From Candidatus Nealsonbacteria bacterium (GTDB lineage: Bacteria > Patescibacteriota > Minisyncoccia > Minisyncoccales > PWPS01), in the NCBI GenBank assembly GCA_003557645.1, contig PWNV01000020.1, forward strand, positions 14,328-78,327: DNA of 64,000 nucleotides, in the 5' to 3' direction. A program made the position numbers and the translations under genes. The notes under the pieces are model-generated. The model ran no database searches. It saw only the letters and a list, made by a program, of their open reading frames with translations, and was not told the DNA's origin. This document shows, piece after piece, positions 1 through 59,518 of the stretch (within the stretch, counting starts at the first letter, position 1; the number at the start of each line of letters is the position of its first letter).

Positions 1-811
1 TCCACCCTGTTTTTCCTCCTATAATTCTTTCTTCCCATCCATTTTCTGCCGTAAACAGAAAGTCATTTGTGTTGCTAAAACTATAATAAGCATAACCACT
101 TGGTGAATAAAGTCTGTAATCTCTCATTGAAAGAATCTCAAAAATATCTGTTTCTGAAAGTGCATATATTGCCATCCTAGCAATGTCTTCCGCGGTAGAA
201 TAATTAACTCTACCGTTGTCATCAAGTCCGCTCTGATTAATAAACTTTGTATCTTTGAGGCCTATTTCACTTCCCTTTTCATTCATTTTTCTCACAAAAA
301 CTTCCACTGGTTTTTTAGTCTCATCTAAAAAACGGTTGCTAATCGAAGCAAGTGCAAACGCCGCACTATTATTAGACTCTATTAGTAACGGATATAGCAT
401 CTCGCTTATTCTCGTCTCTTCCCACGCACGAAAATCTCGAAACTCTGTTTGCATTAAAACTTTTTCCTCTTTGACACCCACTGGTTGTTCAATATCATAA
501 TTTTCCACAACAATAATCGCTGTCATAATCTTGGTGATGCTCGCGATCGGTAATACTAATTGTGGATTTTTCTCATAAAGAACCTTGTAGTCATCTCCGT
601 TTATATAAATAGAAAATGCCGCCGCTGCATCAATTTCTAAGGATTCTGACCCACTGACTTTCTTGGGATAGGATATCACTACTTCCTTTTCTTGTTCTTC
701 CTCGTTTTCCTGGATATTCTTCTCCTCTTTATTCGAAAATGCTAGCCCAAGAAGAAGTATAGCCACAACTCCAATTAAAACACTAACTAGTATTCTTTCT
801 CTCTCTTTCAT
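1..811 (-). CDS. D-alanyl-D-alanine carboxypeptidase (serine peptidase S11 / low-MW PBP); C-terminus runs off window start
   Basis: Absent from the ORF track because it is truncated. My minus-strand translation from ATG ~811 gives MKERERILVSVLIGVVAILLLGLAF (signal anchor), LPIASITKIMTA (SxxK), LIESNNSAA (SxN) and IIGGKTGW (KTG) at the window edge. It overlaps the aspS stop by ~29 nt. Confidence 0.8.
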   Translation of the reverse strand, partial: MKERERILVSVLIGVVAILLLGLAFSNKEEKNIQENEEEQEKEVVISYPKKVSGSESLEIDAAAAFSIYINGDDYKVLYEKNPQLVLPIASITKIMTAIIVVENYDIEQPVGVKEEKVLMQTEFRDFRAWEETRISEMLYPLLIESNNSAAFALASISNRFLDETKKPVEVFVRKMNEKGSEIGLKDTKFINQSGLDDNGRVNYSTAEDIARMAIYALSETDIFEILSMRDYRLYSPSGYAYYSFSNTNDFLFTAENGWEERIIGGKTGW

Positions 812-2189
812 TTTTTATTTCTATTTTTAATTCCTTTAACTGATCTTCGCTAATGTTAGAAGATGGAGACCCCATCATTAGCTCTCTACCATCTCCTGTC
901 TTCGGAAACGCCATAACCTCTCGAATGTTCTTTTCGCCCTGTAAAACCATCAAAAGACGTTCAAAGCCAAAGGCAATTCCACCGTGTGGAGGAACTCCAT
1001 AACTGAAGGCTTCAAAAAGATGCTTGAACTTTTGATCAATGTCTTGCTTTGAATGGCCCAAAACCTCAAAAACAGCCTGCAATACATCTAACTTGTGAGA
1101 CCTTAAGCTTCCACCTGCTATTTCATTCCCGTTTAAAACTAAGTCATACTGCAACGCCTTAATTTTACCAGGGTCTTTCTTAATTTCTTCTGCATTTTCT
1201 AGCGTTCTTGTGAAAGGGTGATGCACCGAGGTCCATTCTCCTTTTTCGTTCTTTTCAAACATTGGAAAATCAGTAACAAAAGCAAAAGCTAATTCCTTAT
1301 CATCGTTTTTGTTTTCTCTAAGGTCGGGAGAATCACAACCCCACTTTTCCATAGCTTCATTGTATGTAATTCTTGGGAACGGTTTCTTTTTAATCTTCTT
1401 TTGAGGAAAAAGAGATTCAATCATTTCAACCATCATTTCCTCTACTAACAATAATATTTCTTCTGTTTCCATGAAAGAAAACTCTATATCAAGTTGTGTG
1501 AATTCAGGTTGCCGGTCACCACGAAGGTCTTCATCACGAAAACATCTTGCAAACTGAAAATAATTTTCCATTCCACTCACCATGAGAAGTTGCTTGTACT
1601 GTTGCGGGCTTTGCGGTAGAGCATAGAAACTTCCGGGATGAATTCTGGAGGGAACCAAAAAATCTCTTGCACCCTCTGGCGTAGATTTAGTTAATATAGG
1701 AGTTTCAATTTCAGTGAAATCTTTTTCATATAAATAATTTCTTAAATAATGCATAACTTTATGACGCATCTTTAGATTTGTCTGCATTCTCTCGCGACGA
1801 AGATCAAGGTATCTATATTTCATTCTAATTTCTTCGTTAATCTCTCCACCATCACTACTTACAGAAAAAGGGGCTGTTTTTGCTTCCGATAATACGTTTA
1901 CCTCTTCTATCTCTATTTCAATTTCTCCCGTATCAATATCGGGATTTTTCATTTTTTCTGGTCTTTTTTTCACTTCTCCAACCAGCTCTACTACCCACTC
2001 TGGTCTCATCCTCTGAGCTATCTTATAACTATCAGTATCTGCCGTTATAACTGCTTGCACAATCCCAGACCGATCTCGAACATCAAAAAAAAGAAGACTA
2101 CCGTGCGCTCGAACAGAATTAATAAATCCGCAGATCCTGACTTTTTCCCCTACACAATGACTGGTATCTTTAATTAAAGTTCTTTTCAT
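783..2189 (-). CDS. aspS: aspartyl-tRNA synthetase, bacterial-type sequence without the GAD insertion domain
   Basis: 468-aa ORF with an N-terminal OB fold. Class II motifs are FYALPQSPQQYKQLLM, FARCFRDEDLRGDRQPEFTQLD (motif 2) and GGIAFGFERLLM (motif 3). Confidence 0.93.
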   Translation of the reverse strand: MKRTLIKDTSHCVGEKVRICGFINSVRAHGSLLFFDVRDRSGIVQAVITADTDSYKIAQRMRPEWVVELVGEVKKRPEKMKNPDIDTGEIEIEIEEVNVLSEAKTAPFSVSSDGGEINEEIRMKYRYLDLRRERMQTNLKMRHKVMHYLRNYLYEKDFTEIETPILTKSTPEGARDFLVPSRIHPGSFYALPQSPQQYKQLLMVSGMENYFQFARCFRDEDLRGDRQPEFTQLDIEFSFMETEEILLLVEEMMVEMIESLFPQKKIKKKPFPRITYNEAMEKWGCDSPDLRENKNDDKELAFAFVTDFPMFEKNEKGEWTSVHHPFTRTLENAEEIKKDPGKIKALQYDLVLNGNEIAGGSLRSHKLDVLQAVFEVLGHSKQDIDQKFKHLFEAFSYGVPPHGGIAFGFERLLMVLQGEKNIREVMAFPKTGDGRELMMGSPSSNISEDQLKELKIEIKNERERKNTS

Positions 2190-4091: not shown

Positions 4092-4301
4092 CTACTCTCC
4101 CCACTTTTCGGTATCATCGTCATCTTCTTCCTCCTCCTCTACTTCACTCTCTTCAACTTCTTCGGTAACTTCTTCTAGCGGCTCCTCTCTTGTTTCTTCT
4201 ACTTGAGGTTCTTTTTCCTTTGGCGTTTCTTGCTTGTTCATCATATACCAAACCACAGCACCCACCAACAAAATTATTCCTAAAATTAACCAAATTGGCA
4301 T
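4092..4301 (-). CDS. membrane-anchored hyperacidic microprotein (69 aa)
   Basis: N-terminal TM helix IWLILGIILLVGAVVWYMM, then acidic tail EEVTEEVEESEVEEEEEDDDDTEKWGE. It has its own terminator. Confidence 0.6.
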   Translation of the reverse strand: MPIWLILGIILLVGAVVWYMMNKQETPKEKEPQVEETREEPLEEVTEEVEESEVEEEEEDDDDTEKWGE

Positions 4302-4340: not shown

Positions 4341-5630
4341 TCACGAAGAAATTATATCTATGAGGTGATAAATATCTCCTGCCCCCATTATAATAAGAAT
4401 TTCGTTTTCTTGCAACACCTCAAGCAAATAATTCTCCGCTTTTTTTAAATCACCGACATAAACTGAATTCTCTATACGATCCCTTAACATTTCTGCATTA
4501 ACTTTCTTTTTGATTTCTACGGCCTCTCTCCCTGGAACTGTGTAAATATCTGTAATTAAAAATCTATCTACCGGCAGTTCTTGCAACTTAGAAACGAATG
4601 AAGAAAAAAGACGATAAGTTCTTTCGTATTGATGAGGCTGAAACAACGCAGTAATTTTTTCCTGAGGATACTTCTCCCTCGCAGCCTCCAGGGTAGCTCT
4701 CACCTCGGTAGGGTGATGAGCATAGTCATTTATGACTTTTATCTTTTTTCCATTCTTTAGCTCTATATTTTTTTCTTCAAATCTTCTCCACGTACCTTTG
4801 AAATTTTCAAGCCCTTTTCTTATTGTATCTTTTTTAATTCCTAAAACACGACTTGCAGAAAAAACTGCAAGAGCGTTATAGAGGTTGTGCTTTCCTGGAA
4901 CAGATAACTTTAACTTTTCTTTCCTTTTCATGCCATACTTTACAATCTTAGCATCAATACTTTCTTCTAGTAGTGCTAAGCTGTTTTCATCGTCTTCGTT
5001 TAAAATAAGAGTGCCTTCTTTTAGATTGCTTCTAACATATTTGTTAAAAACCTGAATAATGCTTTCTATGTTTGGATAGAAATCAAGATGATCTTCTTCG
5101 ATATTAGTAATAATCGCTATCTCTGGATAATAATTTAAAAGAGACGCTTTCCACTCGTCTGCTTCAATAAGTAAATACTTTGACTTTCCCCTTCGATAGT
5201 TGGTCCCATTAAATTCTTTTAATTTTGTTCCAACGATAACGGTAGGATCAAGCCCAGCAGCTATCATTACGAGAGCCATCATGGAAGTTGTTGTGCTTTT
5301 ACCATGTGTTCCCGAAACAGCTATTGTATAATATTTTTTTGTAAGTTCTCCCAGTGCTTCCGGAGAACTTTGTGTCAGAATGCCGATCTTTTTGGCTTTT
5401 TTTATCTCTGGATTCTCTTTTGAAATTGCATTGCTGTAAATTAAAAGATCTACATCATCTGACAAGTTCTCTTCTGAATGCCCCCTAAAAACGGTCATAC
5501 CAACATCTTCCAATTCTGGGCATGAGTTTAAATCAGAGCCGGTAACTTTAAATCCCTCAGCAAAAAAATGCCTAGCAAGAGAAGAAACTCCTATTCCCCC
5601 AATTCCTACAAAATGAATGCTTTTTTTCAT
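4341..5630 (-). CDS. murC: UDP-N-acetylmuramate--L-alanine ligase
   Basis: 429 aa with HFVGIGGIGVSSLARHF, P-loop GTHGKSTTTSM and Mur ligase middle and C-terminal domains. Confidence 0.92.
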   Translation of the reverse strand: MKKSIHFVGIGGIGVSSLARHFFAEGFKVTGSDLNSCPELEDVGMTVFRGHSEENLSDDVDLLIYSNAISKENPEIKKAKKIGILTQSSPEALGELTKKYYTIAVSGTHGKSTTTSMMALVMIAAGLDPTVIVGTKLKEFNGTNYRRGKSKYLLIEADEWKASLLNYYPEIAIITNIEEDHLDFYPNIESIIQVFNKYVRSNLKEGTLILNEDDENSLALLEESIDAKIVKYGMKRKEKLKLSVPGKHNLYNALAVFSASRVLGIKKDTIRKGLENFKGTWRRFEEKNIELKNGKKIKVINDYAHHPTEVRATLEAAREKYPQEKITALFQPHQYERTYRLFSSFVSKLQELPVDRFLITDIYTVPGREAVEIKKKVNAEMLRDRIENSVYVGDLKKAENYLLEVLQENEILIIMGAGDIYHLIDIISS

Positions 5631-7239: not shown

Positions 7240-8166
7240 ATGAAAATAATATTTGCAAGTAATTCTAACTTTGGCTTAATGGTGTCTGAAAAGTTGCTTA
7301 AAAGCAAAATATCTTTAACCAAAATTATTACTTTTCCAGACAAAAAAATTGGTCGAGGACAAAAAAAAGAACCTCTTCCCCTAAAAAAATTTGGTATAAG
7401 AAACAATATTCCGATAGAAGAAGTTGATAATATAATACACTTTCATGATGTGATAGAAAAAGAAAAGGCCGATATAGTCGTTGTTGCTTCCTTTGGTTTA
7501 ATTATTCCAAAAAAAACACTAAGCCTTGGCAGTAAATTCATAAATATCCATCCCTCCCTTCTCCCTAAATATCGCGGTCCAACACCAATTCAAACCAGTA
7601 TTGTTAATGGAGATCAAAAAAGCGGAGTAACCCTTCTTTTTATGGACGAGAAGATAGATCATGGTCCCATTATTGATCAAAGAAAAGTTATTTTCCATCA
7701 AAAAATAAAGTATGAAGAAGCAGAGAAACTTCTAGCACAAGAAGGAGGAGATCTTTTTACAGAAAAATTACCCATTTTAAAAGAGAAAACAAACGCTACA
7801 CCTCAGAGAGAAGAAGAAGCAACATACACCAACCTACTGACAAAGAGAAGTGGGCTAATTAACTGGAATGAAAGTGCAAAAATTATTGAAAGAAAAGTTA
7901 GAGCATATAACCCTTGGCCAGGGACTCACACTAAGGTCAACTGTAAAAATTTAAAAATATTAGAAGCAGATGTTCAGCTACAAACAGAAAACTGTCCCTC
8001 TGGGGTTCCAGGAAAGTTGTATCTTGGCACAAACAACACTCTTGCCGTGCAAACTGGTAAAAACTTTCTTTTGATTAAAAAATTACAACTAGAAGGAAAA
8101 AACCCTACTACTTCAAAGGAATTTCTACAAGGAAATATTAGCATCATAGGGTCGACTCTCTCTTAG
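7240..8166 (+). CDS. fmt: methionyl-tRNA formyltransferase
   Basis: ORF 7225..8166. I prefer the internal Met at 7240 (MKIIFASNSNFG), which removes the overlap. The formyltransferase core is HPSLLPKYRGPTPIQ, with a C-terminal tRNA-binding domain. Confidence 0.9.
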   Translation: MKIIFASNSNFGLMVSEKLLKSKISLTKIITFPDKKIGRGQKKEPLPLKKFGIRNNIPIEEVDNIIHFHDVIEKEKADIVVVASFGLIIPKKTLSLGSKFINIHPSLLPKYRGPTPIQTSIVNGDQKSGVTLLFMDEKIDHGPIIDQRKVIFHQKIKYEEAEKLLAQEGGDLFTEKLPILKEKTNATPQREEEATYTNLLTKRSGLINWNESAKIIERKVRAYNPWPGTHTKVNCKNLKILEADVQLQTENCPSGVPGKLYLGTNNTLAVQTGKNFLLIKKLQLEGKNPTTSKEFLQGNISIIGSTLS

Positions 8167-9041
8167 ATATGCTTTCTTAAGTAGTCCTTTAGCTCCTTGC
8201 CTATCTTCTCTCTTTCAAGTGCAAATTTAAAAGAAGTCTTTAAGTAGCTAAGAGGATCGCCGGTAGTATGCCACTCTCCCTTTACCGGTTGTGCAATAAT
8301 TTTTTCACCTTTTTTGCAAAGTGCATTAAAAATATCTGCAACTCCCAATTCATCGTCTTTTCCTGGTAGTGTGGTTATCACCTCATTTAATACCTTAGGA
8401 GAAAAAACAAATCTCCCAAAAAGGGCCATCTTCGAGGGAGCATCTTTAGCAGGAACCTTCTCGCTAAACCCCTCAATCTCATACTTATTTTTTGTATTTT
8501 CTTTGTAACGAACAGTTCCATATTTGTGCACCTCTTCTTCTTTAACTTCTTGCACTCCAAAAGCAGCTGCTGGTCTTTCCTTTTCATAAACATCCATAAT
8601 TTGTTTTGTAACCGGATTTTCAGAAAGCGTCATATCATCACCAAACATATAAACGAACGATTCGTCAGGATTGATTATCGGCATAACAGAAAAAAGAGGA
8701 GCAGCATTTCCAGGAGGTACATCAGCTCTTTGCCTTACATAAATAAAGTTTGCTAGCTTAGGAATTCTCTTGATTTCCTCTAAGCGCTTTGCTTTTCCGC
8801 TTTTTTCAAGCTTTTGTTCTAGTTCTATGTGTGAGTCAAAATAATCCTCGAGCGCTGTTTGACCTGCTCTTGTAACTAAAATGATATCCTTAATTCCGGA
8901 CTTCACAGCTTCTTCAACTAAATAGTGAACAATTGGTTTATCAATAATAGGAAGCATCTCTTTTGGTTGATTTTTAGTCGCTGGCAGAAAACGTGTTCCG
9001 TAACCAGCAGCCGCGATAACTGCTTTTGTAATTTTAGTCAT
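8163..9041 (-). CDS. galU: UTP--glucose-1-phosphate uridylyltransferase
   Basis: 292 aa. KAVIAAAGYGTRFLPATKNQPKEMLPIIDKP is the canonical GalU N-terminus. Confidence 0.92.
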   Translation of the reverse strand: MTKITKAVIAAAGYGTRFLPATKNQPKEMLPIIDKPIVHYLVEEAVKSGIKDIILVTRAGQTALEDYFDSHIELEQKLEKSGKAKRLEEIKRIPKLANFIYVRQRADVPPGNAAPLFSVMPIINPDESFVYMFGDDMTLSENPVTKQIMDVYEKERPAAAFGVQEVKEEEVHKYGTVRYKENTKNKYEIEGFSEKVPAKDAPSKMALFGRFVFSPKVLNEVITTLPGKDDELGVADIFNALCKKGEKIIAQPVKGEWHTTGDPLSYLKTSFKFALEREKIGKELKDYLRKHI

Positions 9042-9051
9042 ATTTTCTATT

Positions 9052-9678
9052 TTACTTTTTAATTAATGCTAACATCTTATTAATTTTTTTATCTCTCCTG
9101 AAAGAAAAATAATTTTCATCACAGTATGTGCAAACCGAAGATAAACTCACTTTCTCTACTCCTCCACGCAGTATTTTTTCTTCTGCAATTTTTTTAATTG
9201 ACAAAAACTTTTTCCCCTTCCTTTCATAGCGCGCATTTTTGAATTCTTTAAATTTATTAAAAACATCGCCTTGAACCTCAAAATGACAATCATCTATTCC
9301 TGGCCCTATGAAAAAACTTAATTTTTTTTTCCTTTCTATCTCCTCTATTTTTTCCATTGTTTTTTCAATTATTCCCTTTTCAATACCTTTCCATCCTGCG
9401 TGAAGAACTCCAACCATCTTATCAGAAAAAAAGAATATGGGAAGACAATCAGAAACAGTGACTCCAAGCACAATCTTCTCAGAAGTCGTGATAAGTCCAT
9501 CAATGCCAGGCATCACTTTTCCTTGATCATTTTCATCCACTCTTACCGTTTTATTTCCATGACAAATACCAGCAAGAACCAGCGACTTGGGAATAATTTT
9601 GTTTCTTTTTAGAAAGTTCAATTTATTTTCTGAAACATCCATCGCTCCATCTTTTTTTTCTGAAACTACAATTTTCAT
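9052..9678 (-). CDS. pgeF: YfiH/PgeF family (DUF152) purine nucleoside phosphorylase / peptidoglycan editing factor-like
   Basis: 208 aa with conserved CHGN, SDCLPIFF, LHAGWKG and CTYC..FFSFRRD. Confidence 0.8.
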   Translation of the reverse strand: MKIVVSEKKDGAMDVSENKLNFLKRNKIIPKSLVLAGICHGNKTVRVDENDQGKVMPGIDGLITTSEKIVLGVTVSDCLPIFFFSDKMVGVLHAGWKGIEKGIIEKTMEKIEEIERKKKLSFFIGPGIDDCHFEVQGDVFNKFKEFKNARYERKGKKFLSIKKIAEEKILRGGVEKVSLSSVCTYCDENYFSFRRDKKINKMLALIKK

Positions 9679-10256
9679 AAAAAAATTAGCACTGTCTCAA
9701 TTATAGCTGCCACTGCAAGAAGAGGTATTATAACCATAAAAAAGACATCCACACAAATTTTAACAGAATTCTTCAGTTCTTCCCCTGTAAGAAATTCTCG
9801 TAACTTCCCCTGCCTCATCCTGCTCCAAGCAGAAAAGCCAAGCCATAAGCCAAGACCACTGCCAATAAAAACGGCTGGCAGCTCAAATATACCGTGCGGA
9901 AGAAGCAAAGATAGCAAAATGAAAAGGCCATATTGCGAATAAAAAAAAGAAGAAACTAATCCAAGGACCAGTCCATTAATGAAAAGAAAAAACAAGGTAG
10001 GCAGCATGAAAAATATCCCAAGGGCCATTCCCAAAAAAACCGTTATAGTATTGTTAAAAAAGATAAAAAGAACCATTTCTAGCGGTCCAATGTCAAGTAA
10101 AGGAGAAAATGCATTCAATACTTCCTTATAAACTTCCTCGGCTTGTCCCGGATATGCTTGCACAATAAAAACACCAATTAAAAAGGAAGCCACAAAGAAC
10201 AAGAAAGAATATATCCCATAATACTTGATAATGCGAAGAATTAGACTTTTATTCAT
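9675..10256 (-). CDS. SpoIIM/DUF95-family integral membrane protein
   Basis: 193 aa, multi-TM, with the HGIFELPAVFIGSGLG signature. Confidence 0.7.
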   Translation of the reverse strand: MNKSLILRIIKYYGIYSFLFFVASFLIGVFIVQAYPGQAEEVYKEVLNAFSPLLDIGPLEMVLFIFFNNTITVFLGMALGIFFMLPTLFFLFINGLVLGLVSSFFYSQYGLFILLSLLLPHGIFELPAVFIGSGLGLWLGFSAWSRMRQGKLREFLTGEELKNSVKICVDVFFMVIIPLLAVAAIIETVLIFL

Positions 10257-31469: not shown

Positions 31470-32243
31470 TTAGGGCTGAAGGATTTCCTCGGTCTCTCCT
31501 TCAATTGATATTACAACTTCTTCTATTGTCTCAAATTGCAAAAGCGTGTTTTCAATTTGGTCTCGAATCATTGTAACTGTTGCACTGCCTGAAGCATCCA
31601 ATTCTTCACTAAAATCGGCACGAGCAACTCCATTCTCGACAGTGAGAGAATTAAGGGTTGTACCCCCCTCAATCGCTGTTGTATAGTTTTCCTCCATTTC
31701 TGGTCCATCTAAAAGAGTTAGAAGTGTAAACCTTTCCACGTTGTCTGTAGAAACCTCTCTCTCTACCGAAACAAGACTCTCTTGACCATCCTCTACACTG
31801 ACAAAGTAGACATCTACTCTTGTTGTCTCTTCCTCCTCTTCTTCTTCAATCATTGCTCCAGCATGCTCATCAAAAACTCCATCAGTAATAGCACTCACAA
31901 CTTCTCCACCTTCTACTCTAACTACAGTTGTATGAGGAGTTATTACTTGCGCAGCCATCTCTCCCTCTTCAACCTTTCCATAACCAGCAAACATGGCCTC
32001 AAACTCAAGTACTATCTCAAACAAACCTTCTTCTATTTCTTCGGTGCTAATGTGGGTTAATCCTTCTCCCTCTCTTTCAACAAATGTAGGTGCCATTTTT
32101 TCAACCCACTCCTCCGCTACTACCTCAGCTTCTGTCGCAGCCTCATCATCAGGAATTTCAGGAGCCTCCATTCTTGAGATAAGGACACCTGCGACAACAA
32201 TTACAAGAATTACAACTACTACTATAATTAATTTATTACCCAT
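31470..32243 (-). CDS. membrane-anchored acidic protein with C-terminal GerMN-like domain
   Basis: 257 aa with an N-terminal TM helix and a Glu-rich middle (IEEEEEEETT). The C-terminus reads LLTLLDGPEMEENYTTAIEGGTTLNSLTVENGVARADFSEEL. Confidence 0.65.
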   Translation of the reverse strand: MGNKLIIVVVVILVIVVAGVLISRMEAPEIPDDEAATEAEVVAEEWVEKMAPTFVEREGEGLTHISTEEIEEGLFEIVLEFEAMFAGYGKVEEGEMAAQVITPHTTVVRVEGGEVVSAITDGVFDEHAGAMIEEEEEEETTRVDVYFVSVEDGQESLVSVEREVSTDNVERFTLLTLLDGPEMEENYTTAIEGGTTLNSLTVENGVARADFSEELDASGSATVTMIRDQIENTLLQFETIEEVVISIEGETEEILQP

Positions 32244-32265: not shown

Positions 32266-32805
32266 TTAACTCGACCTTTTACGATGAATCTTCGTCAACA
32301 TTCTTTTTACCTTATAGGGATCCGGTATATCCTGAAACACAAATTCTCTAAACTTTCCTGCAGTTTGTATTTGTAAATTACCATAATTAAAAAAAGTTGG
32401 CAACACTCCCTTAACATCAACACTAATATCCTGTATACGGTCATGATACACGCTGGAAACATAACGATTAAAAAGACCATGTAACTCCGTGTGTATCGTT
32501 CTCTGATTAGTAATTATCCAACAATCAAAAAAATAGCTAAACATAACAACAAAAATACACTGCCAAAAAAGAAAAAGGATAAAAAAACAAAGAAAGAAAA
32601 GGTAAAGAAGAACATTGAACTCTCCCACATGTTCAAAAATAAAAGCAACTCCCTCCGATTCATGAATTGATAAAAACGGTAAGATGAAAACAAAAACTAA
32701 GCTACCAATAAAAACAAGGGCGAAAGGAAACACCTTTATTTTTAAAATTAACGGATGCCTTTGTAAAACAAGTAAGATTTTCTCTTTTTCTCTTAGCTTA
32801 AACAT
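32266..32805 (-). CDS. membrane protein with bacterial PH (YdbS/YdbT-like) domain
   Basis: ORF 32266..32892. I prefer Met30 at 32805 (MFKLREKEKILLVLQRHPL), which leaves only an 8-nt overlap with the upstream 66-aa ORF. It has 2-3 TM helices and then a PH-like C-terminus. Confidence 0.6.
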   Translation of the reverse strand: MFKLREKEKILLVLQRHPLILKIKVFPFALVFIGSLVFVFILPFLSIHESEGVAFIFEHVGEFNVLLYLFFLCFFILFLFWQCIFVVMFSYFFDCWIITNQRTIHTELHGLFNRYVSSVYHDRIQDISVDVKGVLPTFFNYGNLQIQTAGKFREFVFQDIPDPYKVKRMLTKIHRKRSS

Positions 32806-33100: not shown

Positions 33101-33328
33101 TTACTCTTCTTCTTCCTCTTCTTCTTCTTCCTCTTCTTCCTCTTCTTCCTCTTCTGGGTCAACTGGATCAACTGGGTCATCTATGTCAATCGGATCATCT
33201 ATGTCAATCGGATCATCTATGTCAATTGGGTCAATTGGATCAACATCGTCTCCTAAAGAAACAACTCCTACAAGAACTACTACCGCCAGCACGAGAACTA
33301 CTGCAATAAGAATTTTCTTGGTATCCAT
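33101..33328 (-). CDS. membrane-anchored hyperacidic repeat microprotein (75 aa)
   Basis: MDTKKILIAVVLVLAVVVLVGVV (TM helix), then DDVDPIDPIDIDDPIDIDDPIDIDDPVDPVDP, then 17 consecutive Glu. It has its own promoter-like region and terminator. Confidence 0.65.
   Translation of the reverse strand: MDTKKILIAVVLVLAVVVLVGVVSLGDDVDPIDPIDIDDPIDIDDPIDIDDPVDPVDPEEEEEEEEEEEEEEEEE
33174..33227. repeat. 18-bp tandem repeat x3 (coding, DPIDID units), next to a 51-nt homopyrimidine (GAA/GAG)n tract at 33104..33154
   Basis: The units are gggtcatctatgtcaatc, ggatcatctatgtcaatc and ggatcatctatgtcaatt. Confidence 0.85.
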
Positions 33329-33351: not shown

Positions 33352-33360
33352 CCGACCTTT
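33352..33360 (-). promoter_or_regulatory. AAAGGTCGG box 23 nt upstream of the ATG, 7 nt after a TATACT -10-like hexamer
   Basis: Minus-strand reading is TTGTATaaatttgaaaatttaaTATACTtacaatcAAAGGTCGGttttaaattttaaaaaaaactatATG. Confidence 0.45.
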
Positions 33361-34187: not shown

Positions 34188-35438
34188 ATGCACATAAAAG
34201 AAATTACTATAAATCATTATAAGAGCATCAAGAAACCTATGCACATTAGAGACATTTCCGACTTTCAGATTCTTGTAGGAACCAATAACGCGGGAAAAAC
34301 GAACATTCTTGACGCAATCAATCTTTTCTTTGACCAAAACGTGGACGCCGAAAGATTTTTTGATGAAAGTGCTAATCTTGAAATTATTCTAACCCATAAA
34401 GGAGAGTCACACAAGTTATCTTATCGGGGAGGCGAAAGCTCTTATAAAGAACATAATTTTAAAAAGTATTTTGTTCGCATTAATAATTCTCACAATTATC
34501 ATGATGTTGCAAGAAAAATAGAAAACTTTAAAAAAGAACATCCTAAAAATTACCAAGATTTTTCTATTGCACTAAAAGAAAATTTTAAAGACATAGAAGT
34601 TAGCGAGGAGCTTTTTCTATCAAATGTTTTTGCTGACAATAAAGAAAGATCAGTAGAAAGAATAGGGTCTGGGTTTAAGCGTCTTTTTGTAATTTTATTC
34701 TATGTGTTCCACCCTCAATATAAAGTTATACTCATCGATGAACCAGCAACCGATCTTCACCCCTCAGTGATAAGAAAGTTTCTTAATATTTTAAGCGCAA
34801 AAAAACTTGATAAACAAATTTTTCTTACCACTCATCATCCAACTTTTGTGCAAGCAAAGTATCTTCCACAAACATGGAGAGTTTTCCGTGAGGAAGAAGG
34901 GAGCACTTCTCTTTGCGGATTTTCAAAGAGAAAAGTTGACGTTAGTCGCTTTATTCAAGAGATCAATGATGACAACTCAGGAATGCTTTTCTCGGACAAG
35001 GTTTTGCTTGTAGAAGGTGTTTCAGACCGTATTTTTATAAGAGAAATGGTTAACCGTTTTTATAGAAAAGACAAAAGTATAAAAGTGGTATATACGAGTG
35101 GCAAAGGATCAATAGATATCTATGCCAACCTCTGTGAAACTTTCCGTATTCCGTATGCAATAATGCTCGATCGTGATGCAGTAAGCTCAAGCTCTCTCCA
35201 AAGAGTTAAAAAATTTCCTGTCTTCAAGAAAAAAGTTTCTCTTCATAATAAAATTGAAGAGCTAAAGAAAAGAGAAATTTTTATCCTGGAAAAAGATTTA
35301 GAGCACGTATATCCACAAAAATACCCAAGAAAAGAAACCAAACCCCTTACAGCTCTTTTCGTTTCTCAGAACATTAAAAAAGAAGATCTTCAGGACAAGA
35401 GAATGAAAACCATCAAAGAGATGTTAGAGCAAATTTAA
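34188..35438 (+). CDS. OLD-family nuclease: ABC-type ATPase fused to a Toprim domain (compact, 416 aa)
   Basis: Walker A GTNNAGKTN, signature-like GSGFKRLF, Walker B VILIDEPATDLHP and H-loop FLTTHHP. The Toprim domain has VLLVEGVSDRIFI and IMLDRDA. Confidence 0.8.
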   Translation: MHIKEITINHYKSIKKPMHIRDISDFQILVGTNNAGKTNILDAINLFFDQNVDAERFFDESANLEIILTHKGESHKLSYRGGESSYKEHNFKKYFVRINNSHNYHDVARKIENFKKEHPKNYQDFSIALKENFKDIEVSEELFLSNVFADNKERSVERIGSGFKRLFVILFYVFHPQYKVILIDEPATDLHPSVIRKFLNILSAKKLDKQIFLTTHHPTFVQAKYLPQTWRVFREEEGSTSLCGFSKRKVDVSRFIQEINDDNSGMLFSDKVLLVEGVSDRIFIREMVNRFYRKDKSIKVVYTSGKGSIDIYANLCETFRIPYAIMLDRDAVSSSSLQRVKKFPVFKKKVSLHNKIEELKKREIFILEKDLEHVYPQKYPRKETKPLTALFVSQNIKKEDLQDKRMKTIKEMLEQI

Positions 35439-45346: not shown

Positions 45347-46692
45347 TGTCTCAAGAAAACATTGAAAAACTTCCTCCACAAAACATAGAAGCGGAACAAT
45401 CACTTCTCGGCTCTCTTATGATAGATGCTAATTCAATTTATAAAATTGCTGACTTTTTGAAGTCAAACGATTTTTATAAAAAAGCTCATAGTGATATTTA
45501 TGAAGCAATAATTGATCTATTTGATCGCAAAAACGCAATTGACTTGTTGTCCGTTTCTGCTCGCCTAGGAGAAAAAGAACTCTTAGATAGTGTGGGCGGA
45601 AAAAGCTATCTTACAACTCTAGTAAACTCTGTTCCTACCGCAAGTCACGTAGTTGATTATGCAAACATCGTTCGTCGCAAACGACTTCTTCGCGACCTTA
45701 TAAGCTCTGGACAAGAAATAAGCATTTCAGCTTACGATGAAAAAAAGGATGTTGATGTACTCCTTGATGAAGCAGAGAAGAGAATTTTCAGTATTACTCA
45801 CAACTCTTCTCAAAAAAACTTTCTTGCAATTAAGGACACTCTTGAGGACGCTTTCGAAAGAATAGAAAAACTTTCCAACGAAGACGGAAAAGCACGTGGA
45901 GTTCCTACCGGATTTACCGATCTTGATAATATTCTTTCAGGGCTTCAAAACTCTGACTTAATAATTCTTGCTGCAAGACCAAGTATGGGAAAGAGTGGAT
46001 TTGCTTCCAATATTGCAAAAAATGTTGCTCTTAAATACAACACTCCCGTGGGCATATTTAGCTTAGAGATGTCAACGGATCAAATAGTAGATCGTCTCAT
46101 CGCCGACATATCCGGCATAAATTTGTGGAAACTACGTACTGGTAACTTAAAAAAACAGGGAGACGACAATGATTTTGTAAAAATTAGAGAATCTTTCGAA
46201 GAACTCTCCAAGGCTCCTATTTACATTGATGATGCAATTTCCTTCAATGTAATGCAGATGCGTACAATGGCTCGTAGGCTGCAATCAGAAAAAGGATTAG
46301 GCCTGATTATTGTAGACTACCTTCAACTCATGCAACCACGATCTCAGAGTCCTTCTATGGTGCAACAGATGACAGAAATATCTCGTGAATTAAAGTCACT
46401 AGCCAAAGAACTTAATGTTCCTGTTCTCGCTCTTTCCCAACTTTCTCGTGCTGTCGAACAAAGAACCCCACAAGTACCAAGACTTTCTGACTTAAGAGAA
46501 ACCGGAGCGTTAGAGCAAGACGCTGATGTTGTGATGTTTATCTACCGTGAAGACTATTATCGACAAGACACTTCCAGAAAAAATATTGCAGACGTCATTG
46601 TTGCCAAGCATCGTAACGGCCCTATCGGAAAAGTAGAGCTTTATTTTGACGACGCTACTGCATCCTTTAAAAACTTAGATAAAAGACACTAA
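45346..46692 (+). CDS. dnaB: replicative DNA helicase
   Basis: 448 aa with PPQNIEAEQSLLGSLM, Walker A ARPSMGKS and the RecA-like C-domain. There is no intein. Confidence 0.95.
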   Translation: MSQENIEKLPPQNIEAEQSLLGSLMIDANSIYKIADFLKSNDFYKKAHSDIYEAIIDLFDRKNAIDLLSVSARLGEKELLDSVGGKSYLTTLVNSVPTASHVVDYANIVRRKRLLRDLISSGQEISISAYDEKKDVDVLLDEAEKRIFSITHNSSQKNFLAIKDTLEDAFERIEKLSNEDGKARGVPTGFTDLDNILSGLQNSDLIILAARPSMGKSGFASNIAKNVALKYNTPVGIFSLEMSTDQIVDRLIADISGINLWKLRTGNLKKQGDDNDFVKIRESFEELSKAPIYIDDAISFNVMQMRTMARRLQSEKGLGLIIVDYLQLMQPRSQSPSMVQQMTEISRELKSLAKELNVPVLALSQLSRAVEQRTPQVPRLSDLRETGALEQDADVVMFIYREDYYRQDTSRKNIADVIVAKHRNGPIGKVELYFDDATASFKNLDKRH

Positions 46693-47303
46693 TGTACCCT
46701 CCTTCGCTAGAAAAATTAATAACTATTTTTACTCGCTTTCCCGGAATAGGTCCACGCACAGCAACCAGATTTGCTTTCTACTGCTCTCAACTCCCCTCAG
46801 AAATAATAGAAGAAATCATAACTACCCTAAAAGAGGTAAAGCAATCCGTAAAAAACTGTAAAATCTGTTTTCGTTCTTATCAAGAAGAGGGCGACCTTTG
46901 CTCTATCTGCCAAGACAAAAGAAGGGAACGAGATGTAATTTGTATAGTAGAAAAAGAGGTGGATCTTCTTTCTATTGAAAAAATAAAAGAATATAACGGC
47001 TTATATTTCATTCTTGGTGGTAATATCTCTACTTTAAAAAAAACAGATTTTAAAAATATTAGAGTAAAAGAGTTAAAGGAAAGATTAACAAATCCTAAAA
47101 AATTTCATCTTTCCAATATAAGAGAAGTTGTTATTGCTACTAACCAGAACACTCAAGGGGAAGCAACAGCACTTTACTTAACTCGTCTGTTAGATCAATT
47201 AAAAATAAAAACGACCCGCCTTAGAAGGGGGCTTTCTACTGGGAGTGAGTTGGAGTACGCGGACGAAGAAACTCTCATCTGGGCTTTTAAGGGAAGAAAA
47301 TAA
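46692..47303 (+). CDS. recR: recombination protein RecR
   Basis: 203 aa with HhH FPGIGPRTATR, zinc finger CKIC..CSIC and a Toprim domain. Confidence 0.93.
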   Translation: MYPPSLEKLITIFTRFPGIGPRTATRFAFYCSQLPSEIIEEIITTLKEVKQSVKNCKICFRSYQEEGDLCSICQDKRRERDVICIVEKEVDLLSIEKIKEYNGLYFILGGNISTLKKTDFKNIRVKELKERLTNPKKFHLSNIREVVIATNQNTQGEATALYLTRLLDQLKIKTTRLRRGLSTGSELEYADEETLIWAFKGRK

Positions 47304-48722: not shown

Positions 48723-48983
48723 CTATGCCCTGTAAACCTTATATCCTTCTCTCACTTTTTCTTTTACTTTTACCCCTACCTCGTTTCTGGGAGAGGCTTT
48801 TTCCACCTTCTTATAATCAACCTCCATAGAATTAATTTTTTGCTCAAAATCTGTCAAACCTCCCACAAACCTTATCTTTTCACCTTTTTCCAATTTCTTG
48901 GAAAGCTTAATAATTGCTACTTCAATATTTCCAAAATAGTGAGAAACTACACCTATTTGTTCCCCTTCTTTATTTGGCATCAT
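48723..48983 (-). CDS. small beta-barrel protein (EF-Tu domain-2-like, tentative)
   Basis: 86 aa. GVVSHYFGNIEVAIIKLSKKLEKGEKIRFVG...EVGVKV resembles translation-factor domain II-like stand-alone proteins. Confidence 0.5.
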   Translation of the reverse strand: MMPNKEGEQIGVVSHYFGNIEVAIIKLSKKLEKGEKIRFVGGLTDFEQKINSMEVDYKKVEKASPRNEVGVKVKEKVREGYKVYRA

Positions 48984-53485: not shown

Positions 53486-53770
53486 TTATTGCCTTACTAC
53501 TACTTCCGAACCATGCACCTCGAGATAGCTAACATCCCTTGTTTCTACAAAACCCATATCCCGTGCAATTTCTTCAACTTCCCTTAATGAAAAACTATTT
53601 AATGAATTACTTGAAAGAAGCTCATTTTGATGAAAGGTGCCATCTAGAATCTTTTGATTTTTTTGCACCAAATACACTTCTTCTGTTAATTGAATAATTT
53701 GAAAAACACAAACCGAAACTAAAGCTACTATCACCAGAGAAGACAATATATAAATAAATTTTACTTTCAT
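53486..53770 (-). CDS. ftsL: FtsL-like bitopic cell-division protein
   Basis: 94 aa with a single TM helix, positioned between rsmH and ftsI. Confidence 0.6.
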   Translation of the reverse strand: MKVKFIYILSSLVIVALVSVCVFQIIQLTEEVYLVQKNQKILDGTFHQNELLSSNSLNSFSLREVEEIARDMGFVETRDVSYLEVHGSEVVVRQ

Positions 53771-53771
53771 C

Positions 53772-54650
53772 TTATTTTTTAATTATTACTCTTAACTTCG
53801 CCGACCTTGAACGAATGTTTTTATTAATTTCCAAAGCTCCTGGTTTAACTGGTTCTTTTGTAAGAAGATCAACATCATTTTTATCAATGAAATCAAGCAA
53901 CGCTCGTTCCTCTATCCCATGAAAAGTGATAACCGCCAATCTTCCCCCTTTTTTTAAAATCTTCAGTGATTGAGGTAGAGCCGATTTAAAGTTCATTATT
54001 TCTCCATTCACAGCAATACGAATTCCTTGAAAAGTCTTCGTTGCACAATGTATGCGTCTGTTTCTATATGAGGAAGGAACACTTTTTTCTATAATTTTAA
54101 CAAGATCCTTTGTGTTTTTAATCAACCTTTCTTTTCTTTCTTTGATAATATTTTCAACAATTCTATCTGCGTACTCTTCTTCTCCCCATTTTCTAATAAT
54201 ATAAAGTAAGTCTTTCTCCCTATATTGATTTACCACCTCTTTGGCTGTAAGAAGAATGTTTTTGTTGTAACGCATATCAAGAGGTTCGTTCCTTCTAAAA
54301 GAAAATCCTCTCCCACTCTTTTCTATATGAAAACTAGAAAATCCTAAGTCAAAGATTATCCCAGATATCGGTCCAAACTCTTTTTCCTCAACAATTTCTT
54401 CAAGCATCGTATAAGATTCATTACAAACGATAAGTCTTTCTCTTTTCTTGCTTTCTAAAATATTGTAGAGGTTTGAATCCCACTCCAGAGCAAGTACTTT
54501 TCCGTTTGGCCTGTTTTTTTCAAGCAGTGCTAGAGAGTGTCCTCCTGCCCCAGCGGTACAATCCACAAAGTTTTCATTTTTTTTCGGATTTAAAAGGTGC
54601 AATACTTCTTGTTTCAAAACGGGTATATGGACTCTGCTTTTTTCTTTCAT
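53772..54650 (-). CDS. rsmH: 16S rRNA (cytosine1402-N4)-methyltransferase
   Basis: 292 aa with HIPVL, DCTAGAGGHS, DLGFSS and FHGIEER. Confidence 0.93.
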   Translation of the reverse strand: MKEKSRVHIPVLKQEVLHLLNPKKNENFVDCTAGAGGHSLALLEKNRPNGKVLALEWDSNLYNILESKKRERLIVCNESYTMLEEIVEEKEFGPISGIIFDLGFSSFHIEKSGRGFSFRRNEPLDMRYNKNILLTAKEVVNQYREKDLLYIIRKWGEEEYADRIVENIIKERKERLIKNTKDLVKIIEKSVPSSYRNRRIHCATKTFQGIRIAVNGEIMNFKSALPQSLKILKKGGRLAVITFHGIEERALLDFIDKNDVDLLTKEPVKPGALEINKNIRSRSAKLRVIIKK

Positions 54651-57791: not shown

Positions 57792-58186
57792 TTTATTGAT
57801 AAGAACAATCCCCCACTAACTATAAAGGGTATCAACACCCAAAAAAACAAAAGGAAAAATCCAACGAAAGCAACAAATATCTCAGCAAAAATACCAATAA
57901 TTATCAGCATCATCCTCATCGCCATTCCAATCAATCTAGAGAACGTATTGAAAATTATAATCTCGGCATATCTCTTAATGTCAAATCCTCTACCATAGGA
58001 AGTTTGATACTTGTGCCACGGAGAAAAAAACGTTTGCATTAAACGAAAGACAGAGAAATAATTGAAGCTAAAACGCAAAAAATCTTGCCAACGCAAGAGA
58101 ATTTCTTGAAGGACTATAACATAATGCCAGGAAATCCAGGAAACAAAAATACTTTTTCTTTCTGTCACTTTAATCATTGCAATCAT
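57770..58186 (-). CDS. integral membrane protein (138 aa), coupled to the Clp-like gene
   Basis: ORF overlapping the Clp-like start by 22 nt. It has FSPWHKY and 2-3 TM helices. Confidence 0.6.
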   Translation of the reverse strand: MIAMIKVTERKSIFVSWISWHYVIVLQEILLRWQDFLRFSFNYFSVFRLMQTFFSPWHKYQTSYGRGFDIKRYAEIIIFNTFSRLIGMAMRMMLIIIGIFAEIFVAFVGFFLLFFWVLIPFIVSGGLFLSIKWILSSI

Positions 58187-58206
58187 TATAATTCAAAGAC
58201 CATCTA

Positions 58207-58254
58207 TTGACAATAGTTTCTTTCAAATTATAATGTCCATAGAAAAAAGGTCGG
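58207..58254 (+). promoter_or_regulatory. sigma70-type promoter TTGACA-N16-TATAAT followed by an AAAGGTCGG box
   Basis: The sequence TTGACAatagtttctttcaaatTATAATgtccatagaaaAAAGGTCGGtatac, with the box at 58246..58254, 54 nt before ATG 58309. Confidence 0.55.
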
Positions 58255-58308
58255 TATACTTTATGAAGTAAAAAAATAACACTTTCCTTAAACGGGAAAA
58301 GAAAATAT

Positions 58309-58536
58309 ATGTTTTTTTCAGACCAAAAAGAAACCTTTAAAAGAGAACCTTTCGCAATGTTAGAAGAAGAGGAAGGAGAAGAAGACGATTTAGATCTTGA
58401 AGATGATTTAGATCTTGACGACGATTTAGATCTTGACGAAGATTTAGATTTGGACGATGAAGATCTGGATGATTTTGATGACGAAGAAGAGGAAGAAGAA
58501 GAAGAGGAGGAGGAAGAAGACGAAGAAGAATTATAA
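58309..58536 (+). CDS. soluble hyperacidic repeat microprotein (75 aa)
   Basis: MFFSDQKETFKREPFAMLEEEEGEE, then DDLDLEDDLDLDDDLDLDEDLDLDDEDLDDFDD, then a poly-Glu tail from residue 59. It has a consensus promoter and a strong terminator. Confidence 0.6.
   Translation: MFFSDQKETFKREPFAMLEEEEGEEDDLDLEDDLDLDDDLDLDEDLDLDDEDLDDFDDEEEEEEEEEEEEDEEEL
58384..58473. repeat. 18-bp tandem repeat x4-5 (coding, DDLDLD units)
   Basis: The units are gacgatttagatcttgaa, gatgatttagatcttgac, gacgatttagatcttgac, gaagatttagatttggac and gatgaagatctggatgat. Confidence 0.8.
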
Positions 58537-59029: not shown

Positions 59030-59452
59030 TCATTTTCCTTTCACTTTAATCTCTTTTGTACCTCCTTTTTTCGGACTGACTTTGGGTAAAACAACTTTTA
59101 GCACTCCCTTTTCATAATTCGCTTCTGCCTTTTCCTCGTTTACTCTAGAAGGCAATTTCACCGCTCGCTCACAAGACCCTTTTCGGATTTCCTTTTTCCA
59201 ATAATTTTTCTCTTTTTCTTCTTTTTCTTCCTTTGTTTCCGCACTCACTCTAAGTACTCCGTCCTCTACTTGTAATTTGATGTCTTTGGGGTCGATGTTA
59301 GGCAAGCTAACTTCTACTACAACATCTTTACCTGTTTCATAAACATCTATTTCTGGTTCGGAGAGATTTTTAGAAAAAACTGGAAGAAACCAGTCTTCAT
59401 CGCCAAAAAAATCAGGCATCTCTCCAAAAAATTTCTTTGGTACAAGTGCCAT
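59030..59452 (-). CDS. small heat-shock protein (Hsp20/alpha-crystallin)
   Basis: 140 aa with the alpha-crystallin domain DVYETGKDVVVEVSLPNIDPKDIKLQVEDGVLRVSAE...GVLKVVLPK. Confidence 0.92.
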   Translation of the reverse strand: MALVPKKFFGEMPDFFGDEDWFLPVFSKNLSEPEIDVYETGKDVVVEVSLPNIDPKDIKLQVEDGVLRVSAETKEEKEEKEKNYWKKEIRKGSCERAVKLPSRVNEEKAEANYEKGVLKVVLPKVSPKKGGTKEIKVKGK

Positions 59453-59476
59453 ATTTTAATTAAAATTGGCTTATCT

Positions 59477-59518
59477 CCGACCTTTTTTTATTTATAACAA
59501 ATCTAATTATGATGTCAA
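59477..59518 (-). promoter_or_regulatory. hsp20 promoter TTGACA-N16-TATAAA followed by an AAAGGTCGG box, 24 nt from the ATG
   Basis: Minus-strand reading is TTGACAtcataattagatttgtTATAAAtaaaaAAAGGTCGGagataagccaattttaattaaaatATG. Confidence 0.6.

Follow-up and report, generated by a model that had tools for sequence, protein, structure and literature searches.

What kind of signal is the short AAGGTCG box that stands in front of hsp20 and several other small genes in a 64-kb stretch of the Candidatus Nealsonbacteria contig PWNV01000020.1 (the whole stretch of 64,000 nucleotides (nt) is called the window below)? A sequence-only reading of this DNA had described five such boxes and taken them for a shared operator or 5'-leader element that defines a small stress and cell-surface regulon. 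The box turned out to be genuine: a leader motif, strongly conserved and not described before, of Parcubacteria that are poor in Shine-Dalgarno sites; full-text literature searches returned no described motif in bacteria of the Candidate Phyla Radiation (CPR) that matches it. It is a single asymmetric 8-mer, the exactly conserved AAAGGTCG (also written AAAGGUCG), and the site alignment reveals no dyad or direct repeat. We give an even chance to the explanation that it is a cis-acting docking or barrier site in the mRNA leader, bordering the ribosome landing zone on its 5' side, where a sequence-specific partner would bind.

On the minus strand, the hsp20 leader reads TTGACA, 16 nt, TATAAA, taaaa, AAAGGTCGG, 24 nt, ATG, with the box core AAGGTCG beginning 6 nt past the -10 hexamer TATAAA. 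This promoter was read directly from the sequence; the promoter scan passed over it since the -10 ends in A, not T. All five boxes described earlier (those of hsp20, the transmembrane (TM)-anchored acidic gene of 75 amino acids (aa), the 86-aa gene, the 69-aa gene and the soluble acidic 75-aa gene) were found at the positions, strands and ATG distances given for them, and the earlier description of the three -10-like hexamers and of the shared 12-mer AATCAAAGGTCG is likewise correct. Two more copies precede a Germane-domain gene and ftsL, so the upstream copies number seven and not five. The boxes and their genes are as follows.

59491..59518, minus strand: sigma-70-like promoter of hsp20 (TTGACA 59518..59513, 16 nt, TATAAA 59496..59491)
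59477..59485, minus strand: hsp20 leader box AAAGGTCGG, 24 nt from the 9-mer to the ATG at 59452, 25 nt from the G of AAGGTCG
59453..59476, minus strand: spacer between hsp20 box and ATG, A/U-rich, with a CCAAT conserved across hsp20 leaders
59030..59452, minus strand: hsp20 gene, 140 aa (Pfam HSP20, E = 1.7e-17)
58207..58234, plus strand: consensus sigma-70 promoter of the acidic 75-aa gene, TTGACA-16-TATAAT (12/12 matches; conserved in relatives)
58246..58254, plus strand: box AAAGGTCGG of the acidic 75-aa gene, about 54-55 nt to the ATG at 58309
58255..58308, plus strand: structured leader of the same gene, with two hairpins between box and ATG
58309..58536, plus strand: hyperacidic 75-aa gene (MFFSDQKE...), with orthologues in L002, L003, L007, L008 and L009
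49009..49017, minus strand: box AAAGGTCGT of the 86-aa gene, 26 nt to the ATG at 48983, 7 nt past TATAAT
48723..48983, minus strand: 86-aa gene, EF-Tu-domain-2-like small barrel protein (homologues bear PF03144)
33352..33360, minus strand: box AAAGGTCGG of the TM-anchored acidic 75-aa gene, 24 nt to the ATG at 33328, 8 nt past TATACT
33101..33328, minus strand: TM-anchored 75-aa gene, with a D/P/E-rich tail after an N-terminal TM segment
4326..4334, minus strand: box CAAGGTCGA of the 69-aa gene, 25 nt to the ATG at 4301, 17 nt past TATAAT
4092..4301, minus strand: 69-aa gene, with an acidic tail after a TM segment
32271..32279, minus strand: box AAAGGTCGA of the Germane-domain gene (AAGGTCG 32278..32272), 28 nt to the ATG at 32243
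31470..32243, minus strand: Germane-domain gene, 257 aa (Pfam Germane, E = 2.8e-18; N-terminal TM segment, acidic linker)
53801..53809, minus strand: ftsL box CAAGGTCGG (AAGGTCG 53808..53802), within the C-terminus of rsmH, 31 nt to the ATG at 53770
53486..53770, minus strand: gene in the ftsL position of the mraZ-rsmH-ftsL cluster, 94-aa bitopic membrane protein

The box of the soluble acidic 75-aa gene begins 12 nt past the -10 hexamer, at about +6 of the predicted transcript. That of the Germane-domain gene forms the last codons (K R S) of a bPH_2 gene and has no -10-like hexamer in front, and that of ftsL consists of the codons TCA AGG TCG G of RSRSA in rsmH. From gene order and topology we infer that the 94-aa product, which has no Pfam match, is FtsL.

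AAGGTCG occurs ten times in the window against 4.09 +/- 1.98 expected, a count that none of 100 dinucleotide-preserving shuffles reached. Seven of the ten copies lie upstream of gene starts on the sense strand, 24-55 nt 5' of an ATG, where only about 2.7% of positions qualify (binomial P 1.2e-9; gene starts are our own calls of open reading frames (ORFs), taken as the first ATG of the longest ORF). The other three are antisense copies in coding regions and give no sign of function:

1320..1326, plus strand: copy in the class II tRNA synthetase gene 783..2189 (PF00152)
45693..45699, minus strand: copy inside a plus-strand ORF
46892..46898, minus strand: copy inside a plus-strand ORF

AGGTCG is the sole G/C-containing 6-mer enriched at -60..-1, where it precedes 5 of 70 window genes against 0.33 expected. 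The 5-mer GGTCG, which had been called compositionally unusual in this DNA, is not in excess (27 observed, 40 expected from base composition). What is in excess is the complete AAGGTCG at its place before genes.

A census of the window together with 17 box-bearing loci (300 kb, 348 predicted genes; Shine-Dalgarno-poor relatives, cited here by locus number) gave the same picture on a larger scale. AAGGTCG lies at most 90 nt upstream in 35 of the 348 genes, about one in ten. The positional bias supposed by the sequence-only reading is strong: at -50..-15, AGGTCG precedes 29 of 349 genes where 1.1 are expected (P ~2e-31), and no other G/C-containing 6-mer is comparable. Among 420 permutations of the 7-mer (243-kb census), AAGGTCG has 22 copies at 15-40 nt, the runner-up has 5 and the mean is 0.26. 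Its density amounts to 16.7 copies per 100 kb in the box-bearing set vs. 2.2 in other AT-rich contigs, and ordinary AT-rich loci have no copies upstream of genes. In the upstream zone (-50..-15, 35 nt), 27 copies are sense and 2 antisense. The distance to the ATG is never below 22 nt in the 35 sites; it is 22-39 nt in 27 of them, with a mode of 23-26 nt across unrelated families. Of the 21 one-mismatch variants, each with 0-1 copies before genes, none shows enrichment there. The sequence logo reveals an A-rich stretch, then AA (24/24, 21/24), AGGTCG, and then G > A > T, with no other column above 0.5 bit; AGGTCG comprises the six bases by which the sites were selected.

The box is carried by 14 unrelated families whose flanking leader sequences share nothing else. 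These include hsp20, the hyperacidic MFFSDQ protein, the EF-Tu-domain-2-like 86-aa protein, FtsL, seven kinds of small membrane-anchored or secreted proteins, a MamF/MmsF membrane protein and a 95-aa ATP-cone protein; dnaK possibly belongs here as well (L017, with the box in GrpE codons). The products are small, with a median length of 95 aa vs. 191 aa for all genes, and 40% of them have an N-terminal hydrophobic segment vs. 22% of all. The loci outside the window were all reached via hsp20, ClpC or the 86-aa protein, and orthologous copies inflate the raw counts; the weight of the argument is therefore carried by the 14 independent families and by the statistics within the window.

Box and spacing are conserved at orthologous promoters in relatives, the opposite of what would have refuted the sequence-only reading. 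Judged by the neighbouring ClpC-type ATPase, the closest loci are from Candidatus Nealsonbacteria (75% and 58% identity) and from metagenome-assembled genomes labelled 'Saccharibacteria'. The hsp20 box is kept in nine lineages (the window, L002, L003, L007, L014, L015, L017, L021 and L023), among which the identity of hsp20 goes down to about 40-50% and the box flanks diverge. It is absent only from L016, where a classical AAGGAGG site is used. Six orthologous leaders of the acidic 75-aa gene have an invariant box 3' of the conserved consensus sigma-70 promoter. The 86-aa gene has a box in the window, in L002 (29 nt) and in L095 (56 nt), and lacks it where the gene is operonic (L094, L098).

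The copy before ftsL is kept in six lineages. The sequence-only reading had placed it at 53811..53819 and regarded it as incidental coding sequence; it actually lies at 53802..53808. The R-S-R-S codons of rsmH are CGT TCA AGG TCG in six of six Nealsonbacteria-type species, with variation in the adjacent Ala, Lys and Leu codons; the more distant L008 has AGA AGT AGA TCA. In the window, AGG makes up 0.16 of the Arg codons and TCG 0.062 of the Ser codons. Synonymous sites frozen at four consecutive six-fold-degenerate codons point to selection at the nucleotide level inside the coding region, so this copy is probably functional for ftsL. In L017, AAGGTCG (4797-4803) forms the K-G-R codons of the GrpE C-terminus, in sense orientation, 39 nt before the ATG of dnaK; akin to the rsmH case, it may be a second intragenic functional copy.

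How does the box relate to the promoter? For the majority of stand-alone genes, 5-13 nt separate the end of the -10 hexamer from the box, which is thus found at about +1..+6 of the predicted transcript. To this extent the earlier placement at the transcript 5' end holds, but the box has no fixed link to the start. The best -10-like hexamer ends anywhere from 5 to 38 nt upstream of it, and such a hexamer is missing altogether at 6 of 30 sites. Several boxes lie between cistrons and lack a preceding promoter, namely those of ftsL, the Germane-domain gene and the ATP-cone gene and one in L040. In L003, L007 and L014, hsp20 has a TTGACA-16-TATAAT promoter, then the inverted repeat known as CIRCE (controlling inverted repeat of chaperone expression) and then the box, and the distance from box to ATG is still 23-26 nt. 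These canonical or near-canonical CIRCE copies before the hsp20 box lie at:

L003, 81-107
L007, ~9466-9500, minus strand
L014, ~380-406

The CIRCE insertions, the variable -10 distance and the intercistronic copies rule out an element tied to the transcription start.

The longest spacings between box and ATG coincide with self-contained hairpins. In the acidic 75-aa leaders this distance is 51-72 nt and holds two hairpins. Hairpin 1 (TACTT-TATG-AAGTA) begins 3 nt past AAGGTCG, and hairpin 2 (CTTTCC..GGGAAAAG) has within it a purine-rich tract that lies 7 nt upstream of the ATG. The stems change in sequence and stay paired in L003, L007 and L009, and RNAalifold predicts five pairs for hairpin 2, three of them with compensatory changes. 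The single-stranded length without the hairpins is roughly 25 nt in the window, L003, L007 and L009, but not in L002; removal of the hairpins may thus leave an effective distance of about 25 nt, which is offered as a suggestion only. Similarly, the hsp20 leader is 67 nt long in L021 vs. 23 nt in its relative L017. The difference is a 48-nt insertion (~9850-9897) that forms a G+C-rich self-contained hairpin (-31.5 kcal/mol) and may be a small mobile or repeat element.

The same acidic 75-aa leader (window, L002, L003, L007, L009) is more conserved than its protein. The promoter, the box and hairpin 1 are followed by a conserved AAAATTAAC linker and by hairpin 2, the 3' arm of which is purine-rich and Shine-Dalgarno-like. 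It looks like a riboregulator. The leader of the window, and only this one, contains a mini-ORF, ATG AAG TAA, within hairpin 1.

Sense orientation, the exclusion zone before the ATG, the preference for a place just beyond this zone, promoter independence, intercistronic use, tolerance of hairpins and intolerance of base changes suggest that the element is read in the mRNA by a partner that coexists with the initiating ribosome. On mRNA, the initiating 30S subunit reaches to roughly -20 and beyond, and the 22-nt exclusion zone matches this reach. A partner competing with the ribosome would be expected to overlap the start region, which is why we read the box as a docking or barrier site. The partner would recognize the box as single-stranded RNA with high sequence specificity. 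It might be a protein that binds RNA, or else some component of the ribosome apart from the anti-Shine-Dalgarno tail. Sitting at the 5' edge of the region covered by the initiating 30S subunit, it would help the mRNA and not block it. It may recruit or hold the ribosome beside an A/U-rich landing pad that has no Shine-Dalgarno site, and/or shield the message from 5'-to-3' decay; such shielding would accord with the position near the transcript 5' end and with the retention of RNase J in CPR bacteria (PMC12641178). The outcome would be a post-transcriptionally defined set of mostly small, often monocistronic genes, namely hsp20, ftsL, those of small membrane-anchored and hyperacidic proteins and that of the 86-aa barrel protein. 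A stress and cell-surface regulon, as first proposed, is still plausible in view of hsp20, the small membrane proteins and the dnaK copy of L017, but the set also includes ftsL, the 86-aa gene and the ATP-cone gene, and its members would have to be co-regulated.

A narrower version of the docking or barrier site is possible but doubtful. The box would be a new translation-initiation signal, a sequence-specific ribosome docking site ~25 nt 5' of the AUG, read by a dedicated adaptor or by a small-subunit element that is not the anti-Shine-Dalgarno tail; such an element might be an rRNA helix or a lineage-specific ribosomal protein.

Several observations weigh against the docking or barrier site. 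The box-less promoters in the window have leaders of ~28-35 nt too, so the ~25-nt spacing of stand-alone genes could equal a 5'-end element plus a standard leader length. Stand-alone genes cannot separate a 5'-end element from a fixed AUG distance, which leaves the distinction to the CIRCE-bearing and intercistronic cases, and the intercistronic boxes could hide unrecognised internal promoters. The existence of the box, its strict sequence, sense orientation, spacing and conservation and its independence of the promoter position are shown directly; action at the RNA level is deduced from orientation and spacing only, and the positive sign of the effect and the nature of the partner are likewise inferred. 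The predicted accessibility of the box is equal to that of shuffled controls (0.57 vs. 0.56), so accessibility does not appear to be selected. Total intolerance of mismatches would be uncommon both among known RNA-binding regulators and in pairing with rRNA. Finally, the leaders of rplJ/rplL, tig and clpC in the window have no box, which means that it is no general high-expression signal.

The nearest functional relatives of such a site are STAB-SD elements, PPR10-type barriers, ops, boxA and the cold box, and they serve as analogies only. STAB-SD elements (cryIIIA, aprE, Firmicutes) are likewise 5'-proximal leader elements too far from the AUG for a ribosome-binding site, in organisms with RNase J. 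They are perfect Shine-Dalgarno pairings with the 16S 3' end, and a bulky factor bound close to the 5' end keeps RNase J off the transcript. The box, in contrast, is not a Shine-Dalgarno sequence, and stabilisation by it would be an analogy. The chloroplast sites of PPR10-type proteins are also sequence-specific, lie a few tens of nt 5' of the start and can be intercistronic; the bound protein blocks the 5'-to-3' exonuclease, sets the 5' end and aids ribosome access. Strict base-by-base recognition of this kind would fit the mismatch intolerance of the box. However, sites of this kind are gene-specific and at least 17 nt long, whereas the box is one 8-mer common to many genes. The ops site of RfaH and the boxA site of NusB/NusE are strict, short sense motifs in leaders, occasionally within operons, and mark subsets of transcription units; RfaH compensates for missing Shine-Dalgarno sites. 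Their sequences (GGCGGTAGnnTG and GCTCTTTAACAA) are unrelated to the box, and they serve long operons with no fixed AUG distance, whereas the genes downstream of the box have the short products noted above; an ops/RfaH-type site was rejected on these grounds. The csp cold box, or upstream box, is comparable as a short box in the 5' untranslated regions of a stress-gene set near the transcript 5' end, but differs in sequence, organisms and gene set, and the present box is also intercistronic.

AAGGUCG also forms the junction of variable loop and T-stem in many tRNAs, and initiator tRNA carries the heptamer as well. One census match (L007 8183) lies in a tRNA (8139-8212). No tRNA-like fold surrounds the boxes, and the resemblance was taken as coincidence.

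Could the ribosome read the box by base pairing? GGAG, GAGG or AGGA is found at -17..-4 in 3% of 64 window genes, and A/T-rich sequence precedes the start codons. Shine-Dalgarno-like motifs occur in 0-19% of genes in box-bearing loci vs. 40-60% in ordinary AT-rich loci. This scarcity in the window fits a report that a subgroup of Parcubacteria has no CCUCCU anti-Shine-Dalgarno motif (PMC9297842). The box might then be a Shine-Dalgarno substitute and long-range ribosome-binding site, the complement of which, CCGACCUUU, would lie in an altered 16S 3' tail or in another exposed helix. We consider this explanation unlikely, although the lineages concerned are poor in Shine-Dalgarno sites, the loss of CCUCCU in part of the Parcubacteria is reported together with a conserved helix h26 (PMC9297842), the box resembles AAAGGAGG with UC replacing A, its invariance over deep lineages is what a partner as conserved as rRNA would produce, and the spacing constraint is set relative to the ATG. 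The spacing itself speaks against it, being 22-39 nt and never below 22 nt, whereas a Shine-Dalgarno site needs 4-12 nt. Partial and wobble variants are not enriched, unlike those of real Shine-Dalgarno sites. Moreover, perfect canonical GGAGGTGA sites stand 5-7 nt before the ATG in box-bearing L021, L023, L040 and L006, which implies a canonical anti-Shine-Dalgarno tail there (as judged from mRNA sites of those loci, not from the window genome). Rfam scans of CPR-like loci did not find 16S rRNA, and a scan of viral contigs for a 16S 3' end followed by CGACCTT gave no match. As for a plain Shine-Dalgarno site, the box shares the purine-rich character, the sense orientation, the constrained AUG distance and AAAGG of the extended AAAGGAGG with it; the long spacing, the lack of variants, the absence of GGAGG from AAAGGUCG, the restriction to ~10% of genes and the co-existence with GGAGGTGA exclude it, in agreement with the sequence-only reading.

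The operator half of the original proposal is less likely than the 5'-leader half, which is borne out by conservation and maintained spacing. According to it, a regulator would bind the duplex box at or just past the transcription start and govern a heat and envelope stress regulon. About two thirds of the promoter-proximal boxes indeed lie 5-13 nt past the -10 and overlap +1..+10, the classic position for a repressor; the gene set has hsp20 and many membrane proteins, with a sense copy 39 nt before dnaK in L017; and the box is found in divergent promoter regions beside clpC. These features notwithstanding, an operator is rather improbable. An asymmetric 8-mer with no dyad or direct repeat, found 27 times in sense and 2 times in antisense orientation and with no degenerate variants, would be atypical, and DNA binding leaves the 22-nt exclusion zone before the ATG unexplained, as well as the boxes that lie 30-38 nt past the -10, behind CIRCE, or between cistrons with no promoter. 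Known operators do not match either. CIRCE, bound by HrcA, is the heat-shock control element to be expected here and is found in hsp20 leaders of relatives, but it is an inverted repeat of 9 bp with a 9-bp spacer and constitutes a separate element upstream of the box (5' of it in L003, L007 and L014); the pattern TTAGCACTC-N9-GAGTGCTAA has no match in the 64-kb window at up to 3 mismatches. Neither CIRCE nor the HspR-associated inverted repeat (HAIR) is represented by the box, as already stated from the sequence. The CtsR operator is a tandem (A/G)GTCAAA-NAN-(A/G)GTCAAA, whereas the box is a single copy with no repeat in its flanks, where columns outside AAAGGTCG carry at most 0.5 bit.

If the box were instead the -35-like element of an alternative sigma factor, with the -10 in the A/T-rich spacer and leaderless or very short leaders, then its fixed ATG distance, strict sequence, sense orientation and stress-type gene set would fit, and the window has one likely leaderless gene, of 138 aa. 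This is very unlikely, since no -10-like signal or other conserved column (at most 0.5 bit each) appears at a fixed distance within 24 nt 3' of the box. A 16-17-nt spacer, a -10 and a further 6-7 nt would put the start 28-32 nt past the box, beyond the ATG at more than half of the sites (22-28 nt). The box of the acidic 75-aa gene precedes a paired hairpin and follows a consensus sigma-70 promoter, so it is transcribed there. A sigma-54-like GG-N10-GC was rejected as well, the GC partner being present only in the hsp20 leader of the window.

An RNA structure or thermometer acting in cis, in which the pairing partner of the box would be the start-codon region or some other part of the leader, has a similarly small probability. 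It draws on the frequency of thermometers in hsp20 genes, on the structured acidic 75-aa leaders and on the hsp20 leader of the window, in which AUG falls in a stem (z = -2.5). The leaders were checked for structure and covariation: the compensatory changes in hairpin 2 stand on one side, and on the other there is no fold or box partner consistent across leaders. The minimum-free-energy (MFE) partners of the box, whether in the start region or in coding sequence, differ between orthologues, most leaders have z-scores short of significance, the box is as accessible as in shuffled controls, and the same 8-mer precedes unrelated leaders. Rfam gave no gathering-level match at any box, and around hsp20 and the acidic 75-aa gene only chance-level matches at E up to 10; no model of an RNA thermometer (ROSE, fourU) or other cis-regulatory family matches. 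The features that define Shine-Dalgarno sites, CIRCE, CtsR operators, sigma -35 elements, ops and the Rfam families are thus missing from the box.

In the window, the hsp20 spacer (59446-59476, minus strand) can form a stem of GCCA...UGGC and A/U pairs that encloses the AUG (MFE -9.8 kcal/mol, z -2.5). The fold is not significant in L003 and L007; a CCA/UGG arrangement is present in L002 and CAAU/AUUG in L003 and L007. This spacer is a possible RNA thermometer, with statistics that are not supportive in all species.

Chance, compositional bias or the shared descent of duplicated promoter cassettes has a negligible probability: the 7-mer is short, some copies share 12-mers (AATCAAAGGTCG, AAGGTCGTTATT) and orthologous copies are not independent, but P is ~1e-9 in the window and ~2e-31 in the census, 14 unrelated families carry the box, it is conserved across lineages of 50-60% hsp20 identity while its flanks diverge, the rsmH synonymous sites are frozen, and 16.7 vs. 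2.2 copies per 100 kb separate box-bearing from other contigs.

CPR bacteria, or Patescibacteria, are a large and almost uncultured group with reduced ribosomes, and the box bears on the question of how mRNAs are selected for translation there. It gives a handle on post-transcriptional control and a marker for 5'-end analysis in metatranscriptomes, and in its RNA form (AAAAAGGUCGG) it can be used as a pull-down bait from enrichment cultures. Nealsonbacteria occur in methanogenic enrichment cultures, and Logan assemblies of SRR490128-SRR490150 contain matches to the window. As a feature, it could improve the annotation of start sites and small genes in CPR genomes. If the partner of the docking or barrier site is a protein, this would be the first post-transcriptional regulon in CPR bacteria; if it is the ribosome, a new mode of start-site selection would follow. 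Should the box be a docking signal for the ribosome, Shine-Dalgarno-poor CPR bacteria would drive the translation of a privileged set of small mRNAs with it.

Some further features of the window and its relatives deserve mention. Tiny proteins with extreme Asp/Glu tails are unusually concentrated in the window (33101-33328, 4092-4301, 58309-58536, 31470-32243); several are anchored by one N-terminal TM helix and contain repeats such as DPIDI and poly-E. In L017 (~3268-3294) and L021, the -35 TTGACA of hsp20 is overlapped by an inverted repeat other than CIRCE, TTATCAC-N13-GTGATAA, which may be the operator of a further repressor. Upstream of clpC, the gene of the 138-aa membrane protein has a TTGTCA-17-TATAAT promoter (in the region 58175-58213, minus strand) in which the -10 overlaps the first ATG; the second ATG (58177) lies 7-8 nt past the -10 hexamer, an arrangement that suggests a leaderless transcript. 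A role of this gene as a CtsR-like regulator was rejected, as it encodes a membrane protein with no Pfam match.

In front of rplJ-rplL the window has a ribosomal protein L10 leader (RF00557; 62337-62460, minus strand), as do L002, L007 and L009. The upstream neighbour of rplJ is a DJ-1/PfpI protein and not rplK-rplA; uL11 and uL1 are not adjacent to rplJ. A defence-type OLD-family ATPase/TOPRIM nuclease (34188-35438, plus strand; AAA_15/AAA_21 and OLD-like TOPRIM) is divergent from an inositol monophosphatase gene. In box-bearing CPR-like contigs, cyclic di-GMP-II riboswitches stand upstream of a Glug-domain protein (L094 3145-3230, L098 2624-2710), and in L095 (1-1735) an intein interrupts the RtcB RNA ligase.

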